Assembly (NCBI GenBank): GCA_044892525.1
Contig: CM097885.1
Coordinates: forward strand, 8,558,001 to 8,622,000
DNA length: 64,000 bases
From: Schmidtea polychroa
Lineage: Eukaryota
Reading direction: 5' to 3'
The notes beneath the pieces were generated by a model that had not been told where the DNA came from, did not search any database, and saw only the letters and a program-made list of their open reading frames with translations. Position 1 is the stretch's first letter. Every line of letters starts with the position of its first letter. Of this stretch, positions 10,851 through 58,640 are shown piece after piece. Made by a program: the position numbers and the translations under genes.

Positions 10851-13800
10851 TTAGTCCTCATCAGACAAAATAACGTCATCGATATCGATATCATCTTCTC
10901 CAAAATCTTCTCCAATATCTTCATTAAATTCTTCCTCATCTTCTCCAACATTTTCTCCAATATTTAATTCACTTAATCTTACATGCCCATATGCTAAACT
11001 AGTATTTTTCCCCACCCAAACCCTTTTGTCATCTGCGTTAGTGCTATTTTTGTGTTTTTAATTGTAAAAATTTGATGATTTTTGCTTGTTATATTAGTCT
11101 GAGGAACCGAAAAAATCTGGTTAGTGTTATAACAATCCAGGTATGACTGATGTTTTATGTCTCTACCTTTCAACGTTACACCTTTAGCCTTTTTTGTTTC
11201 CTCATCACCCAACAAGCTATAACATTTAGGTCTAAGAAAAACCCATTCCTTATATTTAAGACCTTTATTCTCGTCTTTGAACTTTCCAATGACAGAATCA
11301 AGGTTCTTACTATATAAGGAATGACAACTATTGTAATTGGAAGTATCTAATAAATTATCTCGAATCATTGCAGGTAAAAGAACCTCAAGTTTACAGTTAA
11401 TGACTTCGAGGAAAAAAGAATCTGTATCACCTGCAACGATATTAATTTTACAATTAAACTCATTGCGAAATGATTCCAGATCCTTATATTGCAATTCATA
11501 CATTCTTAGTTTAGATAGATCAAGTACAGATTGACCAATGTAACTTGGTCTATCTAAACATATAGAATCTGAATTCAATAATGCCGCGATTAAATTATCG
11601 TCTATTTTAATAGATTTTTTAAAAGTCGGCTTTGAAGAATATTTAACTAATTTACCGGCAGTTGTACAAACACGAAGATTCATTCTTCTCTTTAAATTTT
11701 CAACTGTTTTGCCGTATAAACTGTTATTTAACAATTTATAATAATTTTTATCTAAGTTATTTATGCTTTTTGACCTTAATTCTGTATTTGTATTTATATA
11801 TTTTTTAAAAATTGGAGATTGCTTAAATCTTACACCCCTATTTACACGTGTTACTTTAACACCAAGTTCCAAATATAATTTTAATAATCTCCAATGAATC
11901 ACATAATTAGATTTTGGAAGATGAGTTAATAATAATTTTTCAACCTTAGACCCAGCAGGTTTCATTTTTTCAGCAGCTACAGGGAAATCATTCAACTTAT
12001 CATGAAGCTCAGAAGGAATTACAAGATCAACTTCAAGAGTGTATCCATAAGACAAAGATTCAAGATTTAAATTCCTACATTCATCCATTATTAAATCAAA
12101 TCCATCAAGAACCCAACTAAATTCGCCACAAGGTAATGATTGACTTAAAGCCCAACCATAAAGATTATTAATATCTATATAAAGTAACTCGGTGTTCTCA
12201 TTGGTTTTTACGTAATGCTTATTCACAAAAGTAAGACCGCCTCTTATTCGACCCTCATAAAAGCTAAACATTTCGTTTTCAGTTATGAGCTCAATTGGTT
12301 CATTTAAAGACATTAATGCAGAAGACCAAGACATACCTGGAATTCCGAAATAATTCAATAGTTCCAATCTATTGTGAGCAATAGATTTCAACCGAAACTG
12401 ATGAAAGAAATCAGCCAAAAGAAAACAATCAAGTTTCAAGTAGATCATCATATAATCTAATAAAGTTACGCAATTAGTTTCTACCCAAATCTCCTGAGCT
12501 TTTTCATACTCAAGCTCAGTGACACCTTCCCAGATTGGTGGTAATTCATAAGTAGTTTGGAGAATATCTAAAGATGTAGCGAAATTATAAGGGAAGATTC
12601 CTTTTTCAGAAACTATAGTGCCAGAAAAAACAGAATTAGTAAAAGGCAAAGAATTCAAAGTTTTGACTGCTTTAGCTAAAGAATCATTGACAAATTGATA
12701 AGAATCAATGAATCTTAAGCTAATTTTGCCTAAATGAGCAATCAAAGAAATAAATTTTTCAGTCGTTATTGGGATGCAACCTAAAGTCCAATTTTTAAAT
12801 TTATTTAATCCATATTTAAGTATATGGTGCATATCGTATCCCTTCAAGTTGTGAAATACGATAAGCAAAATTTTTTTTATTTTCCTATTTATGTTACATG
12901 TGCTACAAGCTGCACCCAAGTATTTCCCCGTAAAATGATCGTGATCTCTAACAGGATCGACGATAGATTTCATACAAAGATAACAAACAGATGCACTAAC
13001 AAATTGACGTTGTTCAATTTTCGTTAATTTAATCATTGGTTTCCTACCCATTTTATAATAAAAAAGGAAGAACCTTATTTAATGCTATATCCTCTATAGC
13101 ACTTAAAAAACTCTCGACGCAATCTAAACCTATGAACTGTTGATATGATTTAGATCCGTCAAAGTTATTTACAAGTAAAAGACCAGCAGATATTGGCATG
13201 TGTCGTTGGAAATGAACATTATCAAAAGGTAAAATAGCCTCAAAATCGGCATAAACTACAAAAGGAGGAGTAACTGTTTTCAACCAGTGAGTAAACTGCA
13301 ATAATTTATTTTGAGGGAAAGTGTAAAGAGTTGTTCCTAATTGATTACGTTTACATAATATTTCATGTTTTTCCAGTGCGTGTTTATACCTAAACCCATT
13401 CAAACACCGATGGCACCATAATGATTGTATGCGTGTAGGATAAGTAGTGTTGATACCACAATTCAGTAACCTATTTAAATTACTTATAGCAACGTAATGG
13501 AAATTGTTTCCTTTATTCAATGGTAGTAAATTAATTACAGTTCCATTTAAAACTTTGGAACGATGTATAATGTCTAAATGTGGATGTTTTAATACATAAT
13601 TATCAGTTAATTGTTTGCTATTATCATATGAAAAAACATTAATTATTAAACCCGGATTTTTAGATTCAAATTTCTTAATGTCTTTTAATTTCATAGGTAA
13701 TTCTAACGGGTCGTATACTAAGTCAGATAAATTATAACTCGATGTCCTATTTCTAGCATAACTACTAACTTCATCATATTTTAAAATAGCTAAAATGCTA

Positions 13801-14703
13801 TATAAAAAACATGAATCATCAGTGTTTTTTATATTAATTAAACAATATTTATTTTTTAGATAAGTAGGTCTTTCAATGAAACTCCTACCACTTAATCTAC
13901 TTAACCTACTTATTTTTGTTATGGTGAAGTGGATTTCTGTTATATTTTTTATAATCCAACTACTTCCTAACTCGGTAATATTAATAATTTTCTCATTTAG
14001 TTCCTTAATGCCTTCATCAAAAAATGATGCAGTTAAAGGCTTTGCATAATTTGAGATATTATTAACCTTTATTTCCCCGTCTTTTTCAAATTCGATTGTT
14101 ATTCCGAATTGAATTTTGACGGAGTCTAATTCGTTAATAATATCTCGAAATTTTATAATTAATTGTTCAGGAAATATTATTTCCTTTATATTTAAGTCGC
14201 TAGTATTTAAACTTAATATTTGATGGGTACCCCTTAGATCTTTTAGTATTATGGGAACATTACCCCCTATTTGTATTATATTTAATCCATCCCAAGAATC
14301 AAAGGAAGTGAATAATCCATCATTGGATTCAACAACCAATCCGACCTGGGATTCAACAAAAGGCAATCCGACCTGGGATTCAACAACCAATCCATCATTG
14401 GATTCAACAAAAGGCAATCCAACCTGGGATTCAACAAAAGACAATCCGACCTGGGATTCAACAAAAGACAATCCGACCTGGGATTCAACAAAAGACAATC
14501 CATCCTGGGATTCAACCTCTAATCCGACCTGGGATTCAAAAGAAGAAGTATCTAATTTAATTTTTTTATTAGTAATATTTTTTTCTATAGTCAAAGGTCG
14601 TTTAAAAACAACATCTTTTTTAAAATTAAACATATCTAAATGATTTTTATGTTTATTATAAAAAACGCTATATGTTACAGGGTCACTAGTCTTACATACG
14701 GGA
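10851..14703 (-). pseudogene. Protein-primed family B DNA polymerase (pPolB), frameshifted, 5'-truncated at 14703
   Basis: Motifs YADFE (ExoI), HNLKGYD (ExoII), YIDINNLYG, KLLNNSLYGK, AGDTDS, and an endonuclease VII-like DHDH..G..C..CN insert. Frameshifts near 13060 and 11035. Confidence 0.92.
14310..14540 (-). repeat. Coding minisatellite of 24/27-bp units (FVESQVGLS), 9 units
   Basis: Directly visible. The inverted arm has 7 units at ~15440-15612. Confidence 0.9.
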
Positions 14704-17141
14704 ATTCTTTAATAGAAAACGTTATGAATGTTCGAGAAAAATTTCAGGAATTTGGTAAATTTTAATTTATTTATTAATTAATTTATTAATTAATTTATTA
14801 ATTAATTTAGATAATATTAATGAAGACAATTTAAAATCAAAGATTACAGGAAATTTGAAAAGAAAAAGTAAACATAATTTTTAATTTATTGATTTAATTA
14901 ATTAATAATTTAGGTAATACGAATAAAGAGAAAAATTATGTCAATGTGTCAATAAATCGAAATGAAAATTTACAATGTAAGTATTGATTACTTTTTTATA
15001 ATTTAAAGGAAATTTAATGTAATTTTTTATTTAAGTAAATGTTAATATTTTTAATTTAGTAAATTTTTATTTTTTAGTAAATAAAATTTGTAAAATAATA
15101 ATAATTTGCAAATTTTTGCGTAAACATTTATTAAAATATTTCATTTAAATTATATTTTTTTTTATAGGTATACTTTATCCAAATTATTGTTCATCGAAAG
15201 AACATGATAATAATTGCCATTCTATAATGGAGAATTATTATACGAAAAAATATTATAATAAAACTTATTTTATATGTCCCGTATGTAAGACTAGTGACCC
15301 TGTAACATATAGCGTTTTTTATAATAAACATAAAAATCATTTAGATAGGTTTAATTTTAAAAAAGATGTTGTTTTTAAACGACCTTTGACTATAGAAAAA
15401 AATATTACTAATAAAAAAATTAAATTAGATACTTCTTCTTTTGAATCCCAGGTCGGATTAGAGGTTGAATCCCAGGATGGATTGTCTTTTGTTGAATCCC
15501 AGGTCGGATTGTCTTTTGTTGAATCCCAGGTTGGATTGCCTTTTGTTGAATCCAATGATGGATTGGTTGTTGAATCCCAGGTCGGATTGGTTGTTGAATC
15601 CAATGATGGATTATTCACTTCCTTTGATTCTTGGGATGGATTAAATATAATACAAATAGGGGGTAATGTTCCCATAATACAAAAAGATCTAAGGGGTACC
15701 CATCAAATATTAAGTTTAAATACTAGCGACTTAAATATAAAGGAAATAATATTTCCTGAACAATTAATTATAAAATTACGAGATATTATTAACGAATTAG
15801 GCTCCGTCAAAATTCAATTCGGAATAACAATCGAATTTGAAAAAGACGGGGAAATAAAGGTTAATAATATCTCAAATTATGCAAAGCCTTTAACTGCATC
15901 ATTTTTTGATGAAGGCATTAAGGAACTAAATGAGAAAATTATTAATATTACCGAGTTAGGAAGTAGTTGAATTAAAAAAAATATAACAGAAATCCACTTC
16001 ACCATAACAAAAATAAGTAGGTTAAGTAGATTAAGTGGTAGGAGTTTCATTGAAAGACCTACTTATCTAAAAAATAAATATTGTTTAATTAATATAAACA
16101 ACACTGATGATTCATGTTTTTATATAGCATTTTAGCTATTTTAAAATATGATGAGGTTAGTAGTTATGCTAGAAATAAGACATCGAGTTATAATTTATCT
16201 GACTTAGTATACGACCCGTTAGAATTACCTATGAAATCAAAAGACATTAAGAAATTTGAATCTAAAAATCCGGGTTTAATAATTAATGTTTTTTCATATG
16301 ATAATAGCAAACAATTAACTGATAATTATGTATTAAAACATCCACATTTAGACATTATACATCGTTCCAAAGTTTTAAATGGAACTGTAATTAATTTACT
16401 ACTATTAAATAAAGGAAACAATTTCCATTACGTTGCTATAAGTAATTTAAATAGGTTACTGAATTGTGGTATCAACACTACTTATCCTACACGCATACAA
16501 TCATTATGGTGCCATCGGTGTTTGAATGGGTTTAGGTATAAACACGCACTGGAAAAACATGAAATATTATGTAAACGTAATCAATTAGGAACAACTCTTT
16601 ACACTTTCCCTCAAAATAAATTATTGCAGTTTATTGACTGGTCAAAAACAGTAACTCCTCCTTTTGTAGTTTATGCCGATTTTGAAGCTATTTTACCTTT
16701 TGATAATGTTCATTTCCAACGACACATGCCAATATCTGCTGGTCTTTTACTTGTAAATAACTTTGACGGATCTAAATCATATCAACAGTTCATAGGTTTA
16801 GATTGCGTCGAGAGTTTTTTAAGTGCTATAGAGGATATAACATTAAATAAGGTTCTTCCTTTTTATTATAAAATGGGTAGGAAACCAATGATTAAATTAA
16901 CGAAAATTGAACAACGTCAATTTGTTAGTGCATCTGTTTGTTATCTTTGTATGAAATCTATCGTCGATCCTGTTAGAGATCACGATCATTTTACGGGGAA
17001 ATACTTGGGTGCAGCTTGTAGCACATGTAACATAAATAGGAAAATAAATAAAAAAAGGAATCTTCCCTTATAATTTCGCTACATCTTTAGATATTCTCCA
17101 AACTACTTATGAATTACCACCAATCTGGGAAGGTGTCACTG
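14703..17141 (+). pseudogene. pPolB 5' part (plus arm) with three upstream phase-1 micro-exons
   Basis: Near-identical to the minus arm. Exons ..14754, 14811-14867, 14914-14976 and 15168.. splice in frame. Lesions are a TGA at 15968, frameshifts, and a ~265-bp deletion at ~17055 that removes ExoII. Interrupted at 17141 by the viral insertion. Confidence 0.85.
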
Positions 17142-17323
17142 TGTTTGCGGTGTGCTTCTCTTTATGAACTTGGGAAATGGGGGGGGGGGCGTCGGGGGGC
17201 TCCTATATCTATAGCACGCCATGGCGTGCTTATTAATAAACCATGGTTTATTATGAGATATAGGGGCCCCCGACGCCCCCCCCCATTTCCCAAGTTCATA
17301 AAGAGAAGCACACTGCAAACACA
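17140..17323. repeat. Left terminal Y-shaped hairpin
   Basis: A ~70-bp stem (TGTGTTTGC..CCTATATCT / AGATATAGG..GCAAACACA) encloses two palindromic arms, AGCACGCCATGGCGTGCT and TAATAAACCATGGTTTATTA. Confidence 0.95.
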
Positions 17324-17741
17324 TGACTGCGTGGGAGTTTATAAAACATATATAGTAAAGTACAGGCAGATGCGTTTTCCAAGAATGGCATAGTAATAAA
17401 TGCCTTTACTTTACTATAATATTTTTAATGATGAGTCATAAAACAATGACTGCGTGGGAGTTTATAAAACATATATAGTAAAGTACAGGCAGATGCGTTT
17501 TCCAAGAATGGCATAGTAATAAATGCCTATACTTTACTATAATATTTTTAATGATGAGTCATAAAACACATTAATCAATAATATATAAACACACTAACTC
17601 GTTTATCTATCATTTACAAATGAATAAGAGTTTATAAAACATATATAGTAAAGTACAGGCAGATGCGTTTTCCAAGAATGGCATAGTAATAAATGCCTTT
17701 ACTTTACTATAATATTTTTAATGATGAGTCATAAAACACAA
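17323..17741. repeat. Three copies of a ~120-bp sub-hairpin ITR unit (single inverted copy at ~22855-22978)
   Basis: Near-identical units, each with an 18-bp inverted repeat, a GGCAT-N8-ATGCC stem-loop and ATGAGTCAT. Confidence 0.93.
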
Positions 17742-17765
17742 AACTAAAATTTATTAAATAACAAA

Positions 17766-20642
17766 TTAAGTGTCCGAAAATCCTGCACGCATACCAAAAT
17801 TAGTCCAGTGTGGTTTCTGAAATCTTGCGACATTATGTTTTACCATGGGAAATATGTCATCTTCTGTTGGTGTTTCGTCAGACCGAATCCAATAATAAAA
17901 CGGTGTACAATAAGGAACAGATGGAGTCATCCATTTAGTTGTTGGCTGCCACCATAAACCGTCTTTACTCTGTAATTCTTCTTTCGAATATATTCGACGA
18001 ATATTAATAGCTGGAATTTTCCCATACATTTCTATAGTATACGATATCTTCCAATTAAATGTGCAAGTTAATTGAATTTGATTTCCACTAGGACCAATTA
18101 TAGTATTAAGTTTAATGAATAGCGTAGGCATGGGATTATGTTCAGATACATCAGGGGCTTCTCAAGTTTTACGATATTCGTCGACAGCTATAGCTTCTTC
18201 TGTAAACCATCTATCAGCAAGTTCTGACTTATCTGCAGGCTTCATTTTTTTATGAACTGTATTGATCGTAGCTGCAAAATCATAAGTCACATTAGAATCA
18301 GCATATTTTCTAGTCCATTTATGATATCGAATTTTAGAAGGATAAGGAGCAACTCGTTTATCAGAAGTTCGAGTACTTCTTCCTAACGCACACATGTAAC
18401 TAAATGGTTTAACTACTTTACAATTAAAATAATCAAAGCGATTCCAAAATACTGGATCTGTATCTTTTAAATTGGGATCTGCCAAATCAGTTCTTTGATG
18501 CCACATTTCTGTAATATACCTGGGATATTTAACTTTCGATGCTGTATAATCATACTCAATACTTTCTCCAGTATTACAATTAATAATTTCAACTTCCGGA
18601 CATGTCTCACATATATATATCCATCCTGCTTTAGGCAACATTTGAGGTGTTAATTTAGACAATTGATTATTGACATTATAACCATTAAGTAAACTGGCTT
18701 CATTCAAAAAATAGTCTTTATAGGCTTTTGCTTTATTTTCGGGCATAGAACAGGGTCCGAATATATTCGCAGTGTCTTTATAAACCAACATTTCAACCTG
18801 ATTTTGTAATCCAGAAAAATTTTGTGGAGATGTTTCCCCAACGACCTGAATATTGAAGATTTCGTAGTGCATTGAGACTGGTTTCCACCATAAATATCTT
18901 TCCATTGCAGACCACAAATCCGGGTTACCGAACATAATATGAGGATAATAATATTCGAGCGGAATATTGTGCCATTCGCTTTGTTTGGTGGTGCCGATGC
19001 AAGAAGCTCCGCAATTGGTAGAGGTGAATTGCAAAGAGGTACCATCAAGGCTGGGTCGGAAGTCTCCTTGAGAATGTCTGAGTATTCCATTACCTCCACC
19101 AGAGCCGGGGACCCCAGAGGATGGGACAACGGGAGGAGCAGTTGTTGTTGACATTTCATGAACAGAAGAAATGATTTCTTTAATAGCTTGTTCAGTATAT
19201 AAGGACCCTCGTGTGCTCTCAACATGCTCTTTATGGCTATCTAGTATATGATTGGTTAATTCTTTATGATGTAATCTATTACGCACATCTACAGATAATT
19301 TCTTTGGCATCCGACGCACATATTCTTTAAGTTGTTCCTGTGTTGCCAATTTCCAGTCCTCGTGTTGATGAGATTGATGATGATTTATTTGATAGTAATA
19401 TTTTAATATCTGTAAATTTATCCTATTTAATTTCCGATCATGTAACATGTGATCATCAGGACCGTTACGATTGTACCATGTTTGGGCTATTTTATTATTT
19501 TTAATACTATGCAAATATGCGGTGAATTTATCATTTACATCTAATTTAGTTAATGATTTAATAGGGAGTTTTCGTGGTAATCGTCTTGTACTAGGATTCC
19601 AATAATGTCTGAATACTGTAGTTGTCCACTTGAATTGATTTTTACCATCAGGTGTCCATGCATACCATGAATTAGGTTCACTAGGATTATATGTTTGATA
19701 TGGATTTATCTTTTTGTGTTCCTCTGGTGTACGTAATATAAGATGTTCGTATAATTCTTTTTGAGGATCTTTTGAATCAAATTTAGGTAACTCCATTAAA
19801 TAATGCGTTTGAAACATGGCAGAAGTTAGAAATTTTGTAATGTTACCTTTGGAAGTTTCAACAAATTGCTCTAACATTCCTGGATTGTCATTAAAAGCTT
19901 TTCTTAATACATAATTATTATCGATTATTTCCTTTTTTATATCATTCTTATTCCACGGTATATTTACATTAGAATAACCATATAATTTTAACGCATTTAC
20001 ATAATATTTGGCTTTAGCTAAAAAGTATTCATATTGCTTACCAAACAAATTAGGGACATCTTTTGGCAATGGATTTTCGAAATTCTGATAACGATGAAAT
20101 TCATCTAAGATATTTTCTTCGGGAGACAAGTATTCGCTATAATCGAAATACCCATGATGTTCGCTTAAAGGCTTAAGATTATTCATTTCTTCTTCTGAAT
20201 ATTTTTCATATATATGTTCTCTTGGGTCCGGTAATACATATTCTTTATCAATAGATTCTTTTAAATGTTCTCCTATTACATCACCAGCTTCTACTAATCC
20301 TAGTATTGCAGCATCACTCATATTACCCCATTTAGATATTACTTTAGTATAAAAATTTTTACTTCTAAATAATGTAATAATTTTAGTAATTTGTGGATTG
20401 ATATATTTTCTATTTAAAAAATTAGTTATATTAGAGGTAAACTTTTGATTTAATGTAAGTGGCTTAAATAATTCACTAGTAAGAGATTTAAATGAATTCG
20501 AATGATATAATGGATTAAAACCAGAAGGTCTTTTCATGTCTGCTTGTAATTTTGTAATAAATTTTGATACATGTGGTTGTATAACCTGACTGTATAATAC
20601 AAATAACCTTTCACCAGCATTTATATAAGGAGAATTTGGCAT
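17766..20642 (-). pseudogene. Parvovirus-type capsid protein (VP) with one in-frame TGA at 18162-18164
   Basis: Gly-rich SSGVPGSGGGNG, then WKPVSMHYEIFNIQV (cf. parvoviral RPKxMxVKIFNIQV) and HNPMPTLFIK (cf. HPPPQIFIK). ORFs 18162..20750 and 17766..18131 are in the same frame, 10 codons apart. AATAAA lies just after the stop (17750-17755, minus). Likely major-VP ATG at 19154; the VP1 start is uncertain (20642, 20537 or later). Confidence 0.85.
18704..19225 (-). CDS. Overlapping alternative-frame ORF (173 aa) across the presumed major-VP start
   Basis: ATG-initiated and open for 173 codons in AT-rich DNA, with a hydrophobic stretch NIIILILCSV. Position resembles AAP/SAT. No sequence family recognised. 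Confidence 0.4.
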   Translation of the reverse strand: MLRAHEGPYILNKLLKKSFLLFMKCQQQLLLPLSHPLGSPALVEVMEYSDILKETSDPALMVPLCNSPLPIAELLASAPPNKANGTIFRSNIIILILCSVTRICGLQWKDIYGGNQSQCTTKSSIFRSLGKHLHKIFLDYKIRLKCWFIKTLRIYSDPVLCPKIKQKPIKTIF

Positions 20643-20644
20643 AA

Positions 20645-21944
20645 AATTTTTATAAGCGATCTCATAAACAACGATTATCCCGCGTACATAAAGTCTATAG
20701 CGACAGTGAAGAGCGGGGAAGCAGTGTATCTTCCGTATTGTCTGGCACATCTGTGTCCGATCTGCGAACTCCTACAAAGACTAGTTCGGTATCTAAAATC
20801 AAGCGATCTTCTAAGCACGTTTCCCGTAAACATAAGGCAAGGAGACACAATGATTCTGAGCATTGTGATATACCAGCTGTCAAAGCTGTTGATCAGTTGG
20901 TTTCAGATAATAAAACTCAAAATAATCATCAGGAACGATCAAGAAGATTTAACTCCTTCAAGTTCCAAGTATCTGTTACAAAATATCGATCTCTGGAGCC
21001 GGAACTTAAAAAACTCATGGAGGACAAGTCCTTTACAAGATTCGTTATCGGTCAAGAAGAGGAAGGTGATAATGGATATCACCATATGTAAATGTATTGG
21101 GAGGTATTATTATATTTATTCAATTTAGCTATTAATGGAATAAATATGATAATTACAGATTTACAACAACATGTCTATATATGCCTTTAGGGCAAAAACG
21201 GATATTCCCTTTGTCAGAGGAGTCCCAGGAATCGAACGGCAGTCCGCTATCGACTATGCAACAAAATCTGAGACAAGAGTTGCAGGAGGATTATCTGTAA
21301 ATATTGGGACTCAAAGTAAATACAATTGTGCATCTAATATAGATTATTTCAAACAAGCACTGAATTCTGCCTCGATGAAAGATGGATTAAATATTCTTAT
21401 GCAACACGAAGCTTTTCACTACACAACAAAGAGAAAAACCATAATGGAAACTTTCGTAAATAAATTCGGTCAATCAACTATGCCAAATTTTAATGACAAT
21501 TTTCTAATTGATAAAATAAATTTATTGGATTGGAGAAGCCACGTGTTTGTAGGAGAATTTGGCATAGGTAAAACCAATTTCGCCTTATCACATTTTAAGA
21601 ATCCGGTGCATTGTAAACACCTTCAAATGCTTAACAGAATTTCGGATAATGTTGATAAATGCGACGGAGTAGTGTTCGATGATCTTTATTTCAACAAAAC
21701 TCGAATAGAAGAATTTCTTTCGTTGGTAGATTGTGCATACGAGAATGTCATAAATATCAAATATTCGGTAGCTGTAGTTCCAAAGGGATTGTCCAGAATA
21801 TTTTGTATAAACGATTTGGACTTATTCTATCCAGAATGTATTTCACCAACAATAATGGAAGCTATACATAGAAGAATTAAAATTCATCATTTCCGAGGCA
21901 GAATTTTTAAAGAATACAAATCTGAACAAGTAAAATTTTTATAG
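20645..21944 (+). pseudogene. CRESS-DNA-virus-type Rep (HUH endonuclease + SF3 helicase), intron 21104-21158, one TAA at 21089
   Basis: Motif I-like FKFQV, then VIGQEE..GYHHM*MYWE (motif II HxQ if TAA was CAA), motif III IDYATKSETR, Walker A GEFGIGKT, Walker B VVFDD, motif C IFCIN and Arg finger AIHRRI. A 55-nt phase-0 GT-AG intron joins the frames. No in-frame ATG found; the frame is open from 20645. Confidence 0.85.
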
Positions 21945-22135
21945 TATTATTTATTAAATTAATATTAGACAATGAAACACCCGTATCAGATACAGAACCA
22001 ATGTCCCAGCCAAAATGTCGATTCCTCAGTATCCAGTGCAAATCCTGTATGAAATTCATGCGTATTTACTTGGGAGTGTGCAATAATAGTTTTTAGTGTT
22101 TAGTATATAATAATAAATGTTTTAAATAATAAATG

Positions 22136-22804
22136 TTAAAAGAAATTCTTTATTTTATCAAAAATATCATACTTAACATCATTCAATACATTTATATCTT
22201 CAAATACATTTATATGAGTATTAAATTCGTATGGTTTTTCTACAACGATATATAGAGAACGATTTTTAAGAGCTTGTTCATGCTCAGAGGCATATTTCCA
22301 TATAGGATGATTATTGGATATTATACAAGGGCAATTACTTAGTTCAATTTTTGAATCACCTTTACGAAAAACTTTTAGAAAAATATTACCTTCACATAAT
22401 AACTTTAATAAATTAACATTTTTGAAATCGCAATATATTTCTTCACCAATGATAATCTCTTTTCCGACACAGTCATCGAAACAAAATTCACTTTGAGTTT
22501 GTGCACCAGTAAAGAATCCATGTTTAAGTGTCCCACGACAAATTGCAGTAAATAATGTTTTCCCACCGTTACTTACTCCTTCTAATATAATGGTCTTGGT
22601 CTTTCCGGCTTGAGATGATAAGATTGTATATATCCCAAGAAGACGACGAATATATTTTTCATTTTCTTTAGGGATAATATGACGATTCTCAGAAATAATT
22701 TGATTAATTTGTCTATTGTGATCGCTGTTAAAATGGAAATTGTTGTTATTAATAAAAGCTTCCATAAAAGTTGATAATTCATTGTATAGTAATAGCTTAT
22801 TCAT
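22136..22804 (-). CDS. Stand-alone parvoviral NS1-type SF3 helicase (222 aa, no endonuclease domain)
   Basis: GKTKTIILEGVSNGGKT, EFCFDDCVGKEIIIGEE (cf. NFPFNDCVDKMVIWWEE), LKLLCEG..VFRKG and PCIISNN. Intact ORF with TATATAAA ~35 nt upstream of the ATG, next to the right ITR. Confidence 0.9.
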   Translation of the reverse strand: MNKLLLYNELSTFMEAFINNNNFHFNSDHNRQINQIISENRHIIPKENEKYIRRLLGIYTILSSQAGKTKTIILEGVSNGGKTLFTAICRGTLKHGFFTGAQTQSEFCFDDCVGKEIIIGEEIYCDFKNVNLLKLLCEGNIFLKVFRKGDSKIELSNCPCIISNNHPIWKYASEHEQALKNRSLYIVVEKPYEFNTHINVFEDINVLNDVKYDIFDKIKNFF

Positions 22805-22977
22805 TTGTAAATGATAGATAAACGAGTTAGTGTGTTTATATATTATTGATTAATGTGTTTTATGACTCATCATTAAAAATATTATAGTAAAGTAAAGGCA
22901 TTTATTACTATGCCATTCTTGGAAAACGCATCTGCCTGTACTTTACTATATATGTTTTATAAACTCCCACGCAGTCA

Positions 22978-23148
22978 TGTGTTTGCAGTGTGCTTCTCTT
23001 TATGAACTTGGGAAATGGGGGGGGGGGCGTCGGGGGGCCCCTATATCTCATAATAAACCATGGTTTATTAATAAGCACGCCATGGCGTGCTATAGATATA
23101 GGGGCCCCCCGACGCCCCCCCATTTCCCAAGTTCATAAAGAGAAGCAC
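22978..23148. repeat. Right terminal Y-shaped hairpin (inverted copy of the left, outer end truncated by about a dozen nt)
   Basis: Reverse complement of 17140-17323 with only a few substitutions and G/C-run length differences. Confidence 0.95.
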
Positions 23149-24811
23149 TCAGGAGATTTGGGTAGAAACTAATTGCGTAACTTTATTAGATTATATGATG
23201 ATCTACTTGAAACTTGATTGTTTTCTTTTGGCTGATTTCTTTCATCAGTTTCGGTTGAAATCTATTGCTCACAATAGATTGGAACCATTGAATTATTTCG
23301 GAATTCCAGGTATGTCTTGGTCTTCTGCATTAATGTCTTTAAATGAACCAATTGAGCTCATAACTGAAAACGAAATGTTTAGCTTTTATGAGGGTCGAAT
23401 AAGAGGCGGTCTTACTTTTGTGAATAAGCATTACGTAAAAACCAATGAGAACACCGAGTTACTTTATATAGATATTAATAATCTTTATGGTTGGGCTTTA
23501 AGTCAATCATTACCTTGTGGCGAATTTAGTTGGGTTCTTGATGGATTTGATTTAATAATGGATGAATGTAGGAATTTAAATCTTGAATCTTTGTCTTATG
23601 GATACACTCTTGAAGTTGATCTTGTAATTCCTTCTGAGCTTCATGATAAGTTGAATGATTTCCCTGTAGCTGCTGAAAAAATGAAACCTGCTGGGTCTAA
23701 GGTTGAAAAATTATTATTAACTCATCTTCCAAAATCTAATTATGTGATTCATTGGAGATTATTAAAATTATATTTGGAACTTGGTGTTAAAGTAACACGT
23801 GTAAATAGGGGTGTAAGATTTAAGCAATCTCCAATTTTTAAAAAATATATAGATACAAATACAGAATTAAGGTCAAAAAGCATAAATAACTTAGATAAAA
23901 ATTATTATAAATTGTTAAATAACAGTTTATACGGCAAAACAGTTGAAAATTTAAAGAGAAGAATGAATCTTCGTCTTTGTACAACTGCCGGTAAATTAGT
24001 TAAATATTCTTCAAAGCCGACTTTTAAAAAATCTATTAAAATAGACGATAATTTAATCGCGGCATTATTGAATTCAGATTCTATATGTTTAGATAGACCA
24101 AGTTACATTGGTCAATCTGTACTTGATCTATCTAAACTTAGAATGTATGAATTGCAATATAAGGATCTGGAATCATTTCGCAATGAGTTTAATTGTAAAA
24201 TTAATATCGTTGCAGGTGATACAGATTCTTTTTTCCTCGAAGTCATTAACTGTAAACTTGAGGTTCTTTTACCTGCAATGATTCGAGATAATTTATTAGA
24301 TACTTCCAATTACAATAGTTGTCATTCCTTATATAGTAAGAACCTTGATTCTGTCATTGGAAAGTTCAAAGACGAGAATAAAGGTCTTAAATAAAAGGAA
24401 TGGGTTTTTCTTAGACCTAAATGTTATAGCTTGTTGGGTGATGAGGAAACAAGAAAGGCTAAAGGTGTAACATTGAAAGGTAGTGACATAAAACATCAGT
24501 CATACCTGGATTGTTATAACACTAACCAGATTTTTTCGATTCCTCAAACAAAAATAGCAAGCAAAAATCATCAAATTTTTACAATTAAAAACACTAAAAT
24601 AGCACTAACTAACAAAGATGACAAAAGGGTTTGGGTGGGGAAAAATACTAGTTTAGCATATGGGCATGTAAGATTAAGTTATTTAAATGTTGGAGAAATT
24701 GTTGGAGATGAATTTGATGAAGAAGATGTTGGAGAAGATATTGAAGAAGTTGTTGGAGAAGCTGATATTAATGACATTATTTTATCTGATAAAAATTGTT
24801 TTATTAAATAA
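23148..24811 (+). pseudogene. pPolB 3' part (plus arm), nonsense at 24392
   Basis: Resumes the pPolB sequence right after the virus. Motifs YIDINNLYG, KLLNNSLYGK, AGDTDS and DDKR..AYGH. Confidence 0.92.
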
Positions 24812-25950: not shown

Positions 25951-26519
25951 ATGTCTTCAAACGATCCACAGGTTTGATGTTATAATTATTTAGTAATTTA
26001 ATTATTTTAAATAAGGTACAAGAATTGTCTATTGATTGGGATCATTCTTTTTTAATAATAGATAAATTTCTAACAATAAATGATGAAGATTATATATTCC
26101 TGGCCAAAATAAATAAATCTTTCAAACATTAAGTAATTCAAAATCTATTTGATAAGTTCGACTTCAATATGTCGATGTTGAAATTAACCAGCTGTATATT
26201 ATCTATAAATAATATTAACCATACAGAAATTAACACGCTTAAGGTTTTCTGGATATGTATGGATTTCAGGTTCCGAAAATATCGCGAGCTTATTGAAATC
26301 TTCCTTCTTAATGCATATAAACTTGGTATTACAATACATAATTTACTGAATGAAGTCAGAAAACAGTTTATTACATGTTGTATATGTCGAATTCGAGAAG
26401 TTTCTATTCTATATCTGCCTTGTGGCCATATCATTATTTGTTCCTTATGTTTGAAAAACTGTAGTAGATGTCAGAGTTGTGGTGTCATAATCGATGAATC
26501 TCATTCAGTGTATTTTTGA
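25951..26519 (+). pseudogene. Protein with a C-terminal IAP-type RING finger; intron 25972-26015; in-frame TAA at 26130
   Basis: CCICRIREVSILYLPCGHIIICSLC..CQSC..VYF-stop matches the IAP/MDM2-like terminal RING pattern. TATA at ~25897. No BIR domain recognised. Confidence 0.7.
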
Positions 26520-26542
26520 AATAAATGTTGTAAAACTCCTAC

Positions 26543-26654
<112 letters not shown>

Positions 26655-26673
26655 CATTATTATTATTATTATA

Positions 26674-26729
<56 letters not shown>

Positions 26730-26922
26730 ATTTCAACTTTCTATCACAAATCATGGTTAACTAAAAACATAGTCGATTATTATAAAATTTATAACACAAA
26801 AGTTATACCATAAAAAGTTGACAAACAAAAATAACTAAATATTTACAAATTTTTATTCAACATCGTATTTACACAAATATATATATAATCACAATGTTAA
26901 ATAATTGGCCCAAATTATAACT

Positions 26923-27190
26923 TTAAATTATTGAGTTGAATATTTGATTGAATTGTTGATCTCGAATGACAGGATCCGTTTCAGGAATAACGATATTACC
27001 ACTACCATCTAAGACATCGACCCCTCTATAATGTTCATATGCAAAACTTGAGTTTTTCCCTACCCAAGCTCTCTTATCGTCGTGATTATTTAAAGCTATT
27101 TTTGAGTTTTTAAAAGTAAACAGCTGATGATTCCGGGTTCCTATTCTAGTTTGAGGAACCGACATGTCTGTGTTGTTGTTATAGCAGTCA
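26923..27190 (-). pseudogene. pPolB C-terminal fragment fused to truncated major capsid
   Basis: DCYNN..VPQTRIGTRNHQLFTFKN.KIAL..DDKR.WVG aligns with the C-terminus of ORF 34106..35989. Confidence 0.88.
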
Positions 27191-27739
27191 GACCTTTTCA
27201 GTCTAATATGTACACTAACTCCCGGAAGTAAATATTTCGGTTGATCCATAAAATCGAGTTGTAATGATGAGCACATGGTGAAAACCTTTGAGACTTTAAC
27301 CCACATTTTTTCTTTCATCATCTGCTGCTGCATAACTCATAGGAGTAAGACATGTATTTTTAGTATCGGAATTGTAATTTAAAATAGTTTTTATTAATGC
27401 CTTGTGAATGAATGTATTATTTCCACTCTCAATCTTGATATTATTAAATCCCAACACTGCATCTTTAAACAGAGTATGAAACAGGAAATTGTTCGGTATT
27501 ACATCTGCATTGGCATCCAAAACTTTTCTATCTTTATCTACAACCTTGATCTGAACAGTCAATAAAGTATCGTTCAAATCTAAATATTCAGTTTGCGAAC
27601 CAGTAATATAAAACTCTTTATCATTTCTACTATCGGTAATTGAATTCATAAGAAAAACTTCCTCAAAAGCCCCAAATTCTATTACAGCCTGGGGCGATGG
27701 TCTATCAAATATACATAATTCAGATTTACCACAAATCAT
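27191..27739 (-). pseudogene. Polinton major capsid protein (double jelly-roll), N-terminal part
   Basis: KSELCIF..P.Q, EFYI.G..YLDLNDT.L, HTLF, IKTILNY..DTK, and after a frameshift DQPKYLLPGVSVHIRLKRS; all typical of Maverick major capsid. Confidence 0.85.
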
Positions 27740-28104
27740 TTTGAAATATTAGTTCCATGTCCTTTCATTCGTTTGTTTATACGTGATATTCCATGTCTTT
27801 TACGTTTTGGAGCTGGGGCTGGGGATGGAGGCGTATCTTTTTGAAACATACCTGCAACCCCGGGTAGAACCTTCCCTAACTCAGCTAAAGCATTTGTTTT
27901 TAGGGATTGTAATATTTTCTGTTCATTCATAATCACGTCTTTAGTAGTTTTCATGCCAAAACTACCAATACGTTTAAGAATAGGAAGTGCAAATCTCCCT
28001 ATTGTTTTTAACCAACCTGATCCGTACTGTTTACCAACGAAGTATGGTAATTCACCGCCAGATTGGCTATCACTATACATACTAATAATATCGGAATTAG
28101 CCAT
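27736..28104 (-). CDS. Conserved small Polinton virion protein (QSGG site, amphipathic helix, basic tail)
   Basis: QSGGELPYFVG.QYGSGW..IGRFALPILK, lying between the minor and major capsid genes with overlapping start/stop codons. Confidence 0.7.
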   Translation of the reverse strand: MANSDIISMYSDSQSGGELPYFVGKQYGSGWLKTIGRFALPILKRIGSFGMKTTKDVIMNEQKILQSLKTNALAELGKVLPGVAGMFQKDTPPSPAPAPKRKRHGISRINKRMKGHGTNISK

Positions 28105-29113
28105 CTACTTTACGAAAATGTAATGTCAAATGAGTTTTTGAACCTTTTGGAAAGTTTATAAGTTTTCCACTATCATCACGAATATTTATTTCTATATTGT
28201 TTATACATGAACTTGCTATTGGTAAATACATGGGATTATCGATATTTATATTGAAAACTTCATCATGTTCATATCTACCAATCCATACCGATTTCAAAAA
28301 AGGAACACTGGAATCACCAACAGTTATGGGTTCGATAATGTTAGTATATATGAACATTTGTTGATGATGTTCTAGTATTATTGGTTTGCGTATACCAGTC
28401 GATTTTTCTCGATATTTTTGCCTATCTAATCCAAGTGAATTTGCCAAATTTTTATCAAATGTAACTTCGCAAATATCATCATTCAAACTGAAGGTAAACA
28501 TTAAATCTTTCACAATTTCCAAATTTTTAAATATGTGTGAACAATTGAACTTTAAATATTTAAGTAAATCATCAAGTTTATCAAAATATAATTCATCAGC
28601 AAAGGTAAATGATTCTTCAACTTCATTATTATACGACACAGATATTTTGATTTCTTCTTTCACTATACTGTTTGCTTCAAATAGATTAAAACGTAATAAA
28701 TACTCGGTCTCCGTAACAATATTTTTCAACTTATTGCAACCCATTCGTTTGGCATCTTCAATAGTTTCGAATGTTATTGCAAATGGTTTAAAATCACAAC
28801 TGATATTTAATCCATCCTTGTAAAACATATAGCAATGAGAATCTAATATTTGATTCGGAATATGATATGTTTTATCATAATTACTGATAACAAAGATACC
28901 GCTACATGTTTTCACAATATTCCTTTTGAAATCAATCTTACATTGACTCTAAAATGGGAATGTGTTGTACACGAATGTAAAATCTTGCAGTGCAACTTCC
29001 CAGTCCCCATTTAAAGAAATCGGATTCTGGAGGTTGACCATGAATTTGCTGGCTTGATTATCTGGATGAATTAATGGACAACTATTGCTCGGCAAAATAG
29101 TATAAAAATTCAC
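28097..29113 (-). pseudogene. Polinton minor capsid (penton) protein, one in-frame stop at 28949
   Basis: N-terminal FYTILPSNS..PDN..F..L..PISLNGDWEVAL and C-terminal IYTNIIEPITVGD..P..PMYLP..IEINIRD..G..LTLHFR. The two ORFs are in the same frame. Confidence 0.85.
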
Positions 29114-29739
29114 TTTATTAGGTCTTTTGCTGATATCCATGACGGGTTTTGATAACCATGCCATTTGACATAGTATTGTTTATCCTTGCCGACCTTTTTA
29201 GTTAACAATATATTTTTTGAATTCTAAATACTTTTGGGGGAGGAATGACTTGTAATTCCTGCTCATAAAATTTCCCTTGTACAATATTATTATCATTATC
29301 TTTGATGACATACATTACAGGATTCTGTTTAGTATTTATTTTTGAAATTACAAAGACTTCATCACTCCAATTTGTATCAAAATTTTTAATAAATGGTGAT
29401 GCACTAATTTTACTAATTCTAACATGGTAACCGACTTTATATTTAGGTTTTGCAATTTTTACAGATTTTTTAGAAGTCAATGATGTTTTTGATGTAATAT
29501 CAACCGGTCTCAATCCATTCAGTCCTCGATGTGATGAATGATTATAACTTGTTAATATTTTCGGTAAAACATTTACCCATTTTTTATTACCTTGATGCAC
29601 GAACAATTTCTTTAATCTATCTCTCAATGTTCGATTTAATCTTTCAACATGGGCAGCTTTTATTGAGAATGTACCGAGTAGTGATTTATTTTCAGTTTAT
29701 CGAGGATTTGCTTAACTTTGCTATTGTAGAACTCTTTAC
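29110..29739 (-). pseudogene. Retroviral-like (rve) integrase 3' exon with C-terminal chromodomain, frameshifted
   Basis: After the acceptor TTTTAG (29740): GKEFYN..KAAHVERLNRTLR..YNHS.H..KYKVG..VRISK..NWSDEVF..GKFYEQELQ, then YYVKWHGY..SWI. Confidence 0.88.
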
Positions 29740-30316
29740 CTAAAATAATAATAAGTAATAAATTTAATAAATCAATATGTGTTTGTCCGAATACAGCCAA
29801 GTTGATGGATATTTTATATATTCTCGACAAACCAAAATGGTCAAAGCATCCAGGAAAAGGAATATCTCAAAGATTGGAGAATTTAGAAAACAGCTATGAA
29901 CTATCATTTGTATATATACAAAATATAAAAATTAAATTGATTGATCATATTGAAGTTTTCAATAACTCTATTATTGAAAATAAAAAGAATATGAAAATTA
30001 TTGATAAGAAGCATGATTATTTGTTAAAATAGATTGAATTATTATTAAGCGAAATTCAAGCAATCAAAGGATCAATAGAATATCTGAAAAGCAATTCAAC
30101 ATTACCAATTTCAAACAATATTGCTGCAAATACTAGTACATCAATATTTAGTTTACCTTTGTTAATTTTAAATTATTTAATTGTTTAAATAAATGTATGT
30201 TTTTGTTGATTTGTTGATTTGCGAGTTGTTGAATGTGAGCAGTACCCATAGGGGGACAAAATATTTTGTCGGATCGACTAGGAGTATATATAATAATAAT
30301 AATAATATACTTTGAA

Positions 30317-30381
<65 letters not shown>

Positions 30382-30600
30382 TAATAATAAAAATAATAAT
30401 AATAATAATACTTATAATAATAATATTTTTACTTTATTAAAACAAATTAAGAAAACATTTGCGCACACGGATTCCCCTTTGAATTACCTTTAAAATGACC
30501 CCTTGATCAATAAAATCCAAGCAAAGGTACTCTCAAAATATTAATTTTAAGAAAATACGCACACGCAATCTTTAATTAAATTATATAGCCGCCATCTTGA

Positions 30601-30870
30601 AAAATATGACCTTGACCTTTGAAAGTATGACCATGATACTTTCATCTCAAACACTTTTATAATAATGTCTGAAAAATTCGAAGGTTTTTACCCTTTGAAG
30701 GTTATTGACCAACCATTCACCTTCGAGGGTATGACCATTAGATAGACCTCTCAAATACCTTTCGAATGATACCCTTTGGTGAAGGTTTGACTTTAAAAAT
30801 ATGACCTTGACCTTAAAAAATATGACCTTGACCTTAAATATATGACCTTGGCCCTAAAAATATGCCCTTG
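30601..30870. repeat. Cluster of AAAATATGACCTTGACCTT repeats
   Basis: At least five variants, tandem with ~20-bp period at 30795-30870. Confidence 0.75.
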
Positions 30871-31629
30871 GTGAGTTGTGTTAAAGAATTTCTATTCTTA
30901 GAAAGATTCTCCATATTATAAGAAAAAATTTTCAAGATTACTAACTTCATAGTCGAAAATATTTTGCAAAAGACTGAAACTTTGACTTTTCGAATATTTG
31001 TTCATAAATGATTTTTTGCTATAATGAATTTTTCGAATCTGATATTGAAATTGACAATTTTGACAAATAAAATTTTTTGCTGATTCATTAAATACAATTT
31101 TTATGTCCTTTTCGACTTAAAAAATGCAATTTATTTATTATTCTTAGATTTGTATTGTTTAAATATTCATCATATATTAAATTCTATGTGAAATCTTTTA
31201 AATAAAGATGAAGAAATAAAATTATATTTAAATGTAATCAATAATAAATAACAATTTTTGTATATGAAATAATTGATATAATATTAATAAAATCATAGCT
31301 AAACTAGACCCTTCTAAAAGACAGATTAAACCTGTTGATAAAGATGCATTTCAATTATTTGATGATATAGAATCATGATCAGATGAAGATTTTGTTTTTG
31401 GATCTGATGATTTTTCTGATGGTAAAATACTTATTATTGGTTTATCCAATTGGTATTATTGGACGTATTGGTGGACCAAGAAATTAAAGAAAGTGAAGAC
31501 GAGGAAGAAAACGACAATTCTACCACAGAATTAAATAACTAAGATGGAACTTCTGATACAAATATATCTAGTAAAATTGAAGAAAATATGAAGAAAAGAG
31601 AAAGTGAAATGAAGGGTAGTAAGGGATGT

Positions 31630-31956
31630 ATGAAAGCGAATGGGGTCACATTGAAAGATACTGAACTTACTCATCGGTCGTATCTGAATTGTTATAATAA
31701 TAATGAGATTTATACGGTACTCCAATTTAGAATAACAAGTAAAAACAATCAAATTTTTAGTATTAAAAATAATAAGAGGCCTAATGTTGATGATAAGCGC
31801 AATTGGGTATTTAAAAATAAAAGTTATGTGTATGGTCATATTATAGGGGATGGTATGGTTATAGCTGATGATTCTGGTGAAGAAATGTTGCTACCTATAG
31901 TTGATCGAGATGAAGATTTGTTATATCATCCTCATTTTCCGGTTGTCAATTATTAA
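31630..31956 (+). pseudogene. Further, diverged pPolB C-terminal fragment
   Basis: KANGVTLK..HRSYLNCYNN..SKNNQIFSIKN..DDKRNWV..YGH aligns with the other pPolB tails. Confidence 0.8.
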
Positions 31957-32617
31957 AATTTATGATATAACAAATTTGTTTTTACTCTATTTTTAAACGT
32001 TACAAAATTTTTATTTCGTTAGTGTTACTTGTGATAGTACACTATTTTTAATATCACTAATTATTTTAGTACACATTTTTGCAATACATCTGCAACACAT
32101 CTGAAAACTATGAATGACTCACATACAAAGGTCAATTATTCACACACGCAATATACATGCAGTAATTTGATTAGTTATACACAAGTATAAAATAGAAGTG
32201 AATTGGCATGATAGTCTTTATTTTTAAAATGCAATCCTAGAAGAACGCTTTTGGTGAGAAAACATTTTCTAATTTATTGAAAAAAACAAGTCCAATTAAG
32301 AACATAACTGAGACGAAGCCTGTCAAGAATGATGTGAAACCAGTACAAATGTATCATAACCATAAGATATATTTCTTGGTAGATGAAATTCCATATAAAT
32401 TCTCAAATACAGTCAAATTTATCAAGAAGCAAAATATTCAAATTTCATAGCTCATATAACAAAAGAAGATGTTGCTGTAAATATAGTGTTGGGGAAAATC
32501 AATAAGAATCAATAAGTTGCAATAGAAATAAATCCCCAACAATCGAAATTCCCGTTTTAATAATTTTAATTTGCACTTTCTAATTAAAAACTATTTTCAA
32601 TTAAATTTCTCAACAAT

Positions 32618-33142
32618 AGTAGGTGGTTTGGGCACCGGGAAAACAGGACTCCGGGAGCACAGTACCCCCCCCCCCCCCCCGGGGGAAAAAATTAAAAAAA
32701 ATTTTTTTTTCAAGGTCAACTTGAGAACAAAGACAATGAGTCATCCGATGACTCATCACTCGTCTAGAACAAAGACAATGACTCATCCGATGACTCATAA
32801 AAAATTATTATTATTTTTCAAAAATATTATTATCTGTGCTCGCGGAGTTCTACTTTTCGTCAGCCCAAAACTTAGTCTAAATCTCAAAATATTTTAACAA
32901 TTTATAGTTCATTTTGAAGACCAGACGAAGACAAATCTTTTGAGCCATATAAATAATTTTTATCATTAGTAGTATAAAAGTTATTAATTTTTTAGTCAGA
33001 CACTAATTTATAGCAAATTTATAGCAAATTTTATGAAGAAATTTGCGGGTGATTTATCATTCACCCAATCAGGTAAGACTTTAATTTTATGAAGAAATTT
33101 GCGGGTGATTTATCATTCACCCAATCAGGTAAGACTTAAATG

Positions 33143-33143
<1 letters not shown>
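32618..33143 (+). repeat. Left TIR of element C (~525 bp plus (TTA)n)
   Basis: Inverted copy of 41358-41884 with about 6 substitutions counted by eye. Contains a C-run, four ATGA(G/C)TCAT sites and a ~56-bp tandem duplication. Confidence 0.95.
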
Positions 33144-33189
<46 letters not shown>

Positions 33190-33214
33190 AAAGTTTTAAC
33201 AAGTTTTAACAAAG

Positions 33215-33304
<90 letters not shown>

Positions 33305-34105
33305 CTGTTGTTATTGACTTTGAGAATAACTGACAATATACAAAGAAATTAAAAAAATAAGAATAAATTAAAAAGTAATAATTAGAATAATATAGAAAAA
33401 AATTTTAAAAAATAGGGTTTGAAAATCAAAATTGACACATTTATTGAAATATTTAAATAGCATATATAAGTAGTTATTGGAGGCTTTATTTAAAATATTT
33501 TCAAATATTTTATTAGGCTTCTAGAAGCTAATTATAGAAGCTGTAAAAAATTTAAAAATTTTAGTTTGTGTCATTTTGAAATTTTAAATGTAAAAATTAT
33601 AAAAAAATTTTAAAAGTTTTTAGTAAAACAATTCATTATATTTACAACCAATGAGAATTAAGAGAAAGGAAATAAAAGAAAGATTGAAGGGTATTTTGAA
33701 GAAGAACATTGCTAAATTCCAGGAGATTGACAAGGACTATCGTATAGTCGAAAATTCTTTCATTAAATACATTATTTGCAGCAAAAGGCTTAAATTATCA
33801 TTTTATTGTTATTATTATTATAAGAGAGATGTAGTTGCATGCTGACTGCAAACTACTGTTACAAATTATTTTCTCGTATACCAAATATAAAAATGAAAAC
33901 ATTACAAGTTTTCAAAAATAATAATTTTTACCAATAATATCATTTTATGCTGAAACATTTTCGATAAATTTATATGAAAATATAATGTTTAAACATAGAA
34001 AGAATTGTGAAAACTATAACGAGTTTTCAATAAAATATATACATTATAAAAGAATACAAATCAATAAAAACATTTTTTTTTTAAAAGATATATTAATATA
34101 TCACA

Positions 34106-36142
<2,037 letters not shown>

Positions 36143-36527
36143 CTAAATCTGTTTGCAAGTTATTAGGATGTCCATCTTTAAATAAAATATTAATTGCCTT
36201 GGACATTTCTTCTGCAGATTTTGCCTTGACTGGTATTGCTCGTGCAAACCTGCTGTATACATTAATACATGTTAAAATATATTTATTCCCATTGTTAATT
36301 TTCGAATAAGGTATCATCATCAAATCCATTTGCCATAAATCGTCAATACCAAATGTTTTATACGCTCTTGTTGGAAATCTTTTCCGCATTGGTTTGTTCA
36401 AACTGTACGCAAGCTGATCTGATAACCACTTCTGGGTTTCTTTTTTCGAATTCGGAACTCTTTTCTTTAATTTTGCCACTCCACCGAAACCGGCTTCGTC
36501 TTCTGGGTTCTTCCAAATCTTCTCCAT
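36143..36527 (-). pseudogene. rve integrase 5' exon (rest deleted)
   Basis: AGFGG..KL..WL..Q.AYSL.KP.RKRF, DLWQMDL, KYILTCI..SR.A.A.P.K.K and LQTDLG, followed directly by donor GT and (ATT)n. Confidence 0.88.
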
Positions 36528-36585
36528 TACAACAAGAAGATTTAAAATTAAATTTAATGTCGGGCAATGAAGGATTAGCACCCAT
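36358..36585 (-). CDS. Small ORF overlapping the integrase start, with an N-myristoylation signal
   Basis: MGANPS (Gly2, Ser6), SSCC, then a basic stretch. ATG lies 3 nt after the upstream stop. Confidence 0.45.
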   Translation of the reverse strand: MGANPSLPDIKFNFKSSCCNGEDLEEPRRRSRFRWSGKIKEKSSEFEKRNPEVVIRSACVQFEQTNAEKISNKSV

Positions 36586-36588
36586 TGT

Positions 36589-37124: not shown

Positions 37125-37142
37125 TATTATTCATAGAGGTTT

Positions 37143-37769: not shown

Positions 37770-37868
37770 TTCAAAAATTTTATAAATGTGTATTTGTTTA
37801 TATTCAATGATTTAATGAACTCGTGCTCAATTTGTATATAAAGAATAATTTTCATAAATGATTTAATA

Positions 37869-38306: not shown

Positions 38307-38380
38307 TTGGTTAATTTCTAATTGGTTATTGATTGATTTAAACAAACGGTTTTTTGTTTAGGATTCATTTATTCAACACT

Positions 38381-54970: not shown

Positions 54971-58640
<3,670 letters not shown>

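Follow-up and report, generated by a model that had tools for sequence, protein, structure and literature searches.

Canonical parvoviral NS1 is described as a nuclease and a helicase in one protein (PMC13426907). In AAV2, the initiator's own rep gene also gives the short products Rep40 and Rep52, SF3 helicases that lack the nuclease. Without Rep40/52, AAV encapsidation fell 20-fold (King 2001, cited in PMC12713660), and the sections of the citing article that we consulted report the hairpin following sensor 1 (AAV2 427-434) as the capsid-docking module and term the purpose of AAV's small nuclease-less Reps an open question (PMC12713660). The Bidnaviridae (BmBDV VD1 ORF2) keep a stand-alone S3H without nuclease together with a parvovirus-like capsid, a different replicase, namely their own PolB, and termini that bear no hairpins (PMC4061559); the initial annotation of the locus studied here, which stated that bidnavirus NS1 lacks the endonuclease, agrees with that description. 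The Oomyviridae (parvo-like hybrid virus, NIH-CQV) join a CRESS-type Rep to a parvovirus-like capsid, but this capsid bears PLA2, and a separate parvoviral helicase is not mentioned in the consulted parts of PMC13426907 and PMC4419787.

Closer still are the planarian element PEVE (2002) and the CressRep parvoviruses. PEVE, which is mentioned with the integrated family PIVE by Liu et al. 2011 (PMC3198968), has a helicase-only gene of 227 aa (AAK53627.1; P0003 in our searches), whose ATG is preceded by an in-frame stop at a distance of four codons and by a TATA box at 37 nt. Upstream of this gene, the helicase segment holds no Rep-like ORF; the upstream ORF is capsid and carries no nuclease. PEVE also has a spliced-looking CRESS-type Rep and capsid-like ORFs, in the circular order VP, helicase, Rep, with Rep convergent with the helicase and divergent from VP. 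It is deposited as two segments (L001 and L002), and a 243-251 nt inverted repeat, apparently in an intron, divides its capsid gene over L001:230-739 and L002:207-1040, 1290-3170. The CressRep parvoviruses comprise 14 genomes in the naming key of Buck et al. 2024 (10.1101/2024.03.25.586562, PMC11071296), among them dugesia6041 (BK066653), which comes from a transcriptome of the planarian Dugesia japonica and is PEVE-like by eye, pheidole5097 (BK066460), and apodemus3071 (BK066425). A short NS1 accompanied by CressRep and VP was seen in 11/11 examined; their NS1s measure 184-329 aa and have Walker A at 50-158, read by eye from the protein sequences alone, whereas gene maps could show an upstream nuclease exon. 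Buck et al. term NS1 'expected' and CressRep 'auxiliary' (PMC11071296), and the consulted passages of their text mention neither the missing nuclease nor a role. In the literature passages searched, a scope that left subscription papers and Repbase (PIVE) outside, we found no statement of NS1 nuclease loss or of packaging use in CressRep parvoviruses. The layout with a nuclease-less NS1 is thus on deposit but, in the passages seen, has so far not been described as nuclease loss.

The window, a stretch of 64,000 nucleotides of Schmidtea polychroa contig CM097885.1, contains a further member, as judged by sequence, of this barely described kind, whose three-gene layout was already deposited with PEVE in 2002 and by Buck et al. 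in 2024. The element occupies 17142-23147, which is 6006 nt between empty-site edges, and another copy contains ~0.94 kb more. It shares with the informal PEVE/CressRep-parvovirus group the short nuclease-less NS1, the separate CRESS Rep (broken here), and the PEVE-like capsid and gene order.

The gene of main interest is a stand-alone parvovirus-type SF3 helicase without HUH domain at 22136-22804 on the minus strand, identified by ORF reading, Pfam, AF2 and a PDB fold match. Its frame is uninterrupted from the ATG and encodes 222 aa, of which residues 20-191 match Pfam Parvo_NS1 (PF01057, E 8.2e-13). The SF3 motifs are present, with K82 in Walker A, E121-E122 in Walker B, K148 as B', N165 as sensor 1 and R182 as Arg finger, and the 81 residues ahead of K82 are helical in the AF2 model. 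The ATG lies 52 nt inward of the right ITR's inner edge at 22856, defined as the end of the sequence common to both element ends with the duplication described below excluded. A TATA box (TATATAA, 22836-22842, minus strand) read from the sequence 38 nt 5' of the ATG provides a putative promoter. These distances match the initial annotation, which had described an intact ORF ~50 nt within the ITR boundary with a TATA box and had held that an HUH domain could not fit upstream. The latter point is confirmed as well: the closest in-frame stop is 16 codons upstream of the ATG, no open frame upstream contains an HUH-like motif apart from a single HLQ tripeptide that abuts the ATG within this 16-codon stretch, and there is no room for a nuclease domain or exon 5' of the helicase because only 343 nt remain to the element end, nearly half of them taken up by the terminal hairpin (22990-23148). 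Compared with Parvoviridae, the gene therefore has an SF3 domain homologous to that of NS1 (PF01057, PDB and viral fold matches), and the HUH endonuclease that NS1 carries in the same protein is missing from its 222 aa. Contigs of run X7, which is tentatively RNA, cover the helicase thinly. Summed contig depth, which is not copy number, is highest over the helicase core (22244-22705) and the capsid core (18779-19240); additional, more diverged helicase and capsid copies in the host, a PIVE-like family, are suggested.

In its linear form, its size in the range of ~4-6 kb and its terminal hairpins, the element agrees with Parvoviridae. The left ITR (17142-17445) and the right ITR (22856-23147) are true inverted repeats, 97% identical across ~296 nt, and fold into Y-shaped hairpins, that of the left end being the same as the right one but inverted; z is -17.9 for one end and -19.4 for the other, each relative to 200 shuffles. 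We rejected a flip/flop reading of the two hairpins, which are plain inverted copies. Two extra ITR sub-units follow the left ITR (17441-17740, plus strand). The first repeats the putative promoter of the helicase together with its first three codons; this extra copy of the promoter region spans 17441-17628, and the longest inverted match hence extends to 22796. The element differs in this respect from PEVE, in which we found no parvovirus-type hairpin between VP end and helicase start; here, a single linear integrated unit has its Y-hairpin ITRs at that place.

The CRESS nonanucleotide origin has the consensus NANTATTAC. A stem-loop within the right ITR (22897-22914, plus strand), whose 5-bp stem bears a loop containing TATTAC, has one mismatch to it and the polarity needed for a terminal nick, in what is an integrated linear copy with ITRs. 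We regard it as a candidate nick site and as a weak, post hoc lead: it was equalled in 30/5000 shuffles (this strand, post hoc), two further such sites lie in coding parts, and one variant copy shows a gap of two letters inside the loop, at 22904. The PEVE repeats contain no TATTAC within a hairpin.

The element has inserted into the polymerase gene of a Polinton, since 17141 is connected to 23148 in other Polinton copies. These empty-site joints, with 18 other letters in between, were found in contigs of runs X2 and X5, and the joint also occurs in X1. About 18 target bases were replaced without target duplication, with edges uncertain by a few bases. The interrupted gene encodes a protein-primed polymerase, with its 5' part, itself internally deleted, at 16114-17141 and its 3' part at 23148-24394 (PF03175, E 2e-19), both on the plus strand. 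The empty-site joints show PolB without the element, and PolB as one of its genes, the bidnavirus reading, was rejected. The element thus has the stand-alone S3H of Bidnaviridae and differs from them in its hairpin termini and in the PolB, which here is a flanking Polinton gene.

The surroundings hold more Polinton sequence. An inverted duplication of the polymerase region (10994-16864 and 23148-24609, centre near 14990) has arms that are 98-99% alike, and additional Polinton genes occupy 26169-39517: a RING finger (26169-26519), PolB (34106-35989), an rve integrase (36018-36527), an A32-like ATPase (37143-37769) and, in the same region, a TBP-domain protein (37869-38306, E 6.8e-15). Host-like genes at 6082-7566 and 56725-57087 comprise TRAF/MATH-domain ORFs and an AAA ATPase fragment. 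A parvovirus-like genome with nuclease-less NS1 (17142-23147) is thus found inside a Polinton PolB gene (16114-24394). Bidnaviruses have been proposed to originate from an event of this type, bringing together a parvovirus-like genome and Polinton PolB (PMC4061559). Given the very high abundance of Polinton sequence in the sequencing runs, the insertion may be due to chance.

The other two genes of the element are a capsid gene and a CRESS-type Rep. The parvovirus-like capsid gene lies at 17766-20642 on the minus strand, with an in-frame stop at 18162-18164 beyond which the frame continues to 17766. Its product gave no Pfam HMM match; it resembles PF00740 clusters in the ESM Atlas (0.96, 216/256 features shared), with a recognition score under the tool's mark, which points to the jelly-roll capsid protein of Parvoviridae at low recognition. 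It also matches PEVE ORFs with E 3e-11 (capsid core) and 1e-5. A Pfam search of the element for PLA2 gave no match, and an 862-aa VP starting at 20750 was rejected, as it would span a deletion junction. On the plus strand, a remnant of Rep exon 1 (20652-21103) lacks a start codon and contains motifs I and II, with an in-frame stop (21089-21091) in motif II. It is followed by a GT-AG intron of 55 nt (21104-21158), for which an X7 contig, tentatively RNA, shows a spliced joint 21069 to 21157, and by exon 2 (21159-21944), which encodes motif III (YxxK) as well as the element's second SF3 helicase, complete and with Walker A/B, sensor and Arg finger retained. The motifs were read by eye against PEVE Rep. 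Exon 2 is 30% identical to PEVE Rep over 242 aa (E 8e-41); PEVE Rep itself matches Pfam Viral_Rep weakly (E 0.032). This Rep is the sole HUH nuclease of the element and is encoded on the strand opposite to the helicase.

The copy in the window is an endogenous relic in which Rep and VP are broken. The set of CRESS Rep, helicase and capsid proposed in the initial annotation is indeed present, but that account did not mention that Rep and VP are defective in this copy. At the junction 20651/20652, this copy lacks ~0.94 kb, which would comprise the 5' end of Rep and the control region between the divergent VP and Rep genes. An X7 contig (record 31) has 937 letters between the places that adjoin here, and an X1 contig (record 5) has 303 unaligned letters ahead of 20652. 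The short form is not an assembly slip, because DNA contigs of X1 (record 4) and X5 (record 21) contain it. Related copies differ at the VP stop, the Rep stop and this deletion. The X7 contig of record 31 (2908 letters) covers the starts of both VP and Rep and keeps the intron, and its 590 letters past 21763 could not be aligned to the window.

We found that the helicase-only layout is shared by the closest homologs. A phmmer search with the helicase gave 274 matches at E <= 0.001, of which 150 were listed; the five best of these measure 244, 222, 227, 122 (a fragment) and 232 aa. When matches are ranked on the first 62 helicase residues, the five best are all short proteins that align there with their own N-termini. 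Full-length NS1 in close relatives, which the initial annotation had named as evidence against its reading, was not observed there; the closest homologs are equally short, as is the PEVE protein, and the N-terminal length comparison it had called for places their starts at the same position, with alignment to the N-terminal helices. The HUH motif, tested by a simple sequence pattern, is present in 36/148 matches, with Walker A at 240-585 in these vs 82 in the query. In a quick tree without bootstrap (46 rows, the query and 45 matches chosen by hand from the 150 listed), the query falls into a 9-row clade (SH-aLRT 95) of proteins that are 176-285 aa long, have Walker A at 71-134 and, by the same pattern test, all lack the HUH motif. 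One member, P0049, matches the NS1 of Parvovirus pheidole5097 when the two are compared by eye. Placement of the query was not resolved in an 89-row quick tree of the helicase core alone, also without bootstrap, and certain short homologs may be fragments. The catalytic residues show little or no variation across 75 homologs, B' K148 and Arg finger R182 being nearly invariant, and homologs with 29-37% identity retain both the helicase length and the catalytic residues.

Further searches added little. A word-index protein search with the single helicase gave no match, at near or longer lengths, and one with an alignment returned two proteins, both already known. No locus was found in viral contigs with the helicase, Rep exon 2 and homologs P0006 and P0010 as queries; a locus search with alignment A5 returned PEVE only in viral contigs and nothing in metagenomes. 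Genomic context was read directly for the two PEVE segments and one distant relative, a 3865-nt metagenome contig that encodes a long SF3 protein followed by a capsid-like ORF (L003:259-3628). Its SF3 protein has no HUH motif or nuclease Pfam match, and the contig carries no replicase. In the supplement of Buck et al., Parvo4714 has a separate 'Nick' gene alongside a short NS1, a possible case of a naturally split NS1.

Because the closest relatives are equally short and PEVE likewise has an upstream stop and a TATA box, we consider the helicase-only layout, by sequence comparison, a trait of the lineage and neither a deletion nor a splicing product. It is hardly conceivable that a full-length NS1 lost its nuclease in this copy only, or that a nuclease exon is spliced on: the copy does carry a large deletion at 20651/20652 and rearranged ITR units, yet the shared start position and aligned N-terminal helices of the closest homologs, the PEVE context and the mere 343 nt of upstream sequence speak against both. 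The Rep nuclease lies on the opposite strand, and none of the joints listed leads into the helicase 5' end, where splicing had been raised by the initial annotation; 40 more joints and 625 loose ends exist beyond that listing. We regard a deletion or splicing origin of the short form as largely refuted. That the helicase is a dispensable relic of the ancestral NS1, a functionless passenger, is very improbable. The other two genes have decayed in this copy, and an open frame of 666 nt alone proves little; however, length and catalytic residues persist in the homologs at 29-37% identity, and the copies show a synonymous bias, albeit in a small sample. Four of the five helicase differences listed between copies are synonymous (P 0.016 at an assumed neutral proportion of 0.25), compared to 19/28 in VP; 33 of the 40 listed difference rows were used, six outside ORFs and the stop row being dropped, and 977 further rows exist.

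The structure prediction against AAV Rep40 that the initial annotation had suggested identified Rep40 as the nearest fold. The AF2 model (pLDDT 95.8) has AAV2 Rep40 as its best PDB fold match (E 8e-10, TM 0.61), Rep40 is also the best PDB sequence match (E 4e-20), and BmBDV NS ranked second in a viral fold search. The N-terminal part, however, superposes poorly (TM 0.61, rmsd 6.9) and is ~35 residues shorter than that of Rep40, which has that many more residues before Walker A. The helicase also differs from Rep40 between sensor 1 and the Arg finger, where a spacer of 16 residues, a helix in the model, stands in place of 22; the AAV-type beta-hairpin after sensor 1, the capsid-docking module, is absent in both alignment and model. 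The 16-residue spacer, in which AAV's docking hairpin would not fit, occurs in 121/143 SF3 matches, which sits badly, as far as the sequences and the consulted part of PMC12713660 go, with a docking hairpin common to all parvoviruses. Since 29/36 matches with the HUH motif share this spacer, the missing hairpin weakens the analogy to AAV without singling out the short form, and docking would have to differ across the whole branch.

We additionally modelled self-assembly. A tetramer with ATP supported self-binding with a score of 0.64, compared to 0.00 for the best of three controls, at a partner pLDDT of at least 84; the score mark is passed by 20/30 solved homo-pairs and 1/23 single chains. 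Contacts agreed in at least 94% between runs, and head-to-tail binding was predicted at the nucleotide sites. The model's memory of solved SF3 rings may account for this pass. By prediction, the helicase thus has what characterizes Rep40/52, namely an intact ATPase, DNA-translocation motifs and ring-type self-assembly.

What, then, might this helicase do? Since the CRESS Rep is the only HUH nuclease in the element, it is the likely initiator, and since it comes with its own full helicase, the parvoviral helicase would be redundant for initiation. By analogy, we consider it somewhat probable that the latter is a packaging motor, the likeliest of its roles, in which a ring pumps ssDNA into capsids and Rep nicks and copies. 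The lineage would have lost the NS1 nuclease, leaving the CRESS Rep as sole initiator of hairpin-primed replication, and the retained helicase would serve a capsid-linked job, as Rep40/52 do in AAV. It would assemble head to tail with shared ATP sites, as modelled, and would dock on the five-fold pore via a surface that differs from the hairpin used by AAV. The strongest point in favour of packaging is that the capsid, and not a replicase or a hairpin, is what constantly accompanies the nuclease-less helicase. The proposal, which the initial annotation had also put forward, rests on analogy and gene co-occurrence. A second helicase may even be dispensable for packaging, given that none is mentioned for Oomyviridae in the sources consulted.

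The main alternative, a minority possibility that deserves weight, is a split NS1, in which the CRESS Rep nicks and the helicase mainly melts or refolds hairpins or displaces strands, with packaging secondary or left to Rep. The element ends are parvovirus-type hairpins, and to our knowledge CRESS Reps do not normally handle such ends. The absence of the capsid-docking hairpin and the putative helicase promoter adjoining the ITR, like an early NS promoter, are in line with this division, as are PDB entry titles according to which AAV Rep40 was solved on ITR DNA in melting complexes. On the other hand, Rep carries a complete helicase itself, and helicase retention does not track hairpins, because the bidnaviruses keep their nuclease-less helicase with hairpin-free termini (PMC4061559) and Parvovirus pheidole5097 is listed as circular (Buck et al.). 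Hairpin melting and packaging are compatible, and both could hold. A non-motor or regulatory role, as ATP-dependent scaffold, in transcription control or as partner of a Rep ring, appears improbable: the origin-binding domain is absent and the short N-terminus lacks the linker on which stable oligomers depend in AAV (PMC3375335), yet all motor residues, including the DNA-contacting K148 and the Arg finger R182, are nearly invariant. Returning to the packaging motor, a wider version can be proposed only tentatively. Nuclease-less NS1 and parvoviral capsid might form a fixed module of linear ssDNA viruses at the family level that swapped replicases (CRESS Rep or PolB), with Rep adapted to hairpin ends via the ITR TATTAC nick and docking achieved without the AAV hairpin.

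With PEVE and the genomes of Buck et al. 2024 already in GenBank, the architecture itself is less of a surprise. This copy preserves both hairpin termini, which are usually lost in contig assemblies. Overall, the element speaks for CressRep, although termed 'auxiliary', being the sole initiator in these viruses. Initiation and the parvoviral helicase sit in two unrelated proteins, whereas AAV draws its small Reps from the initiator's own gene, and a capsid-loading role would thereby become separable from replication for testing.
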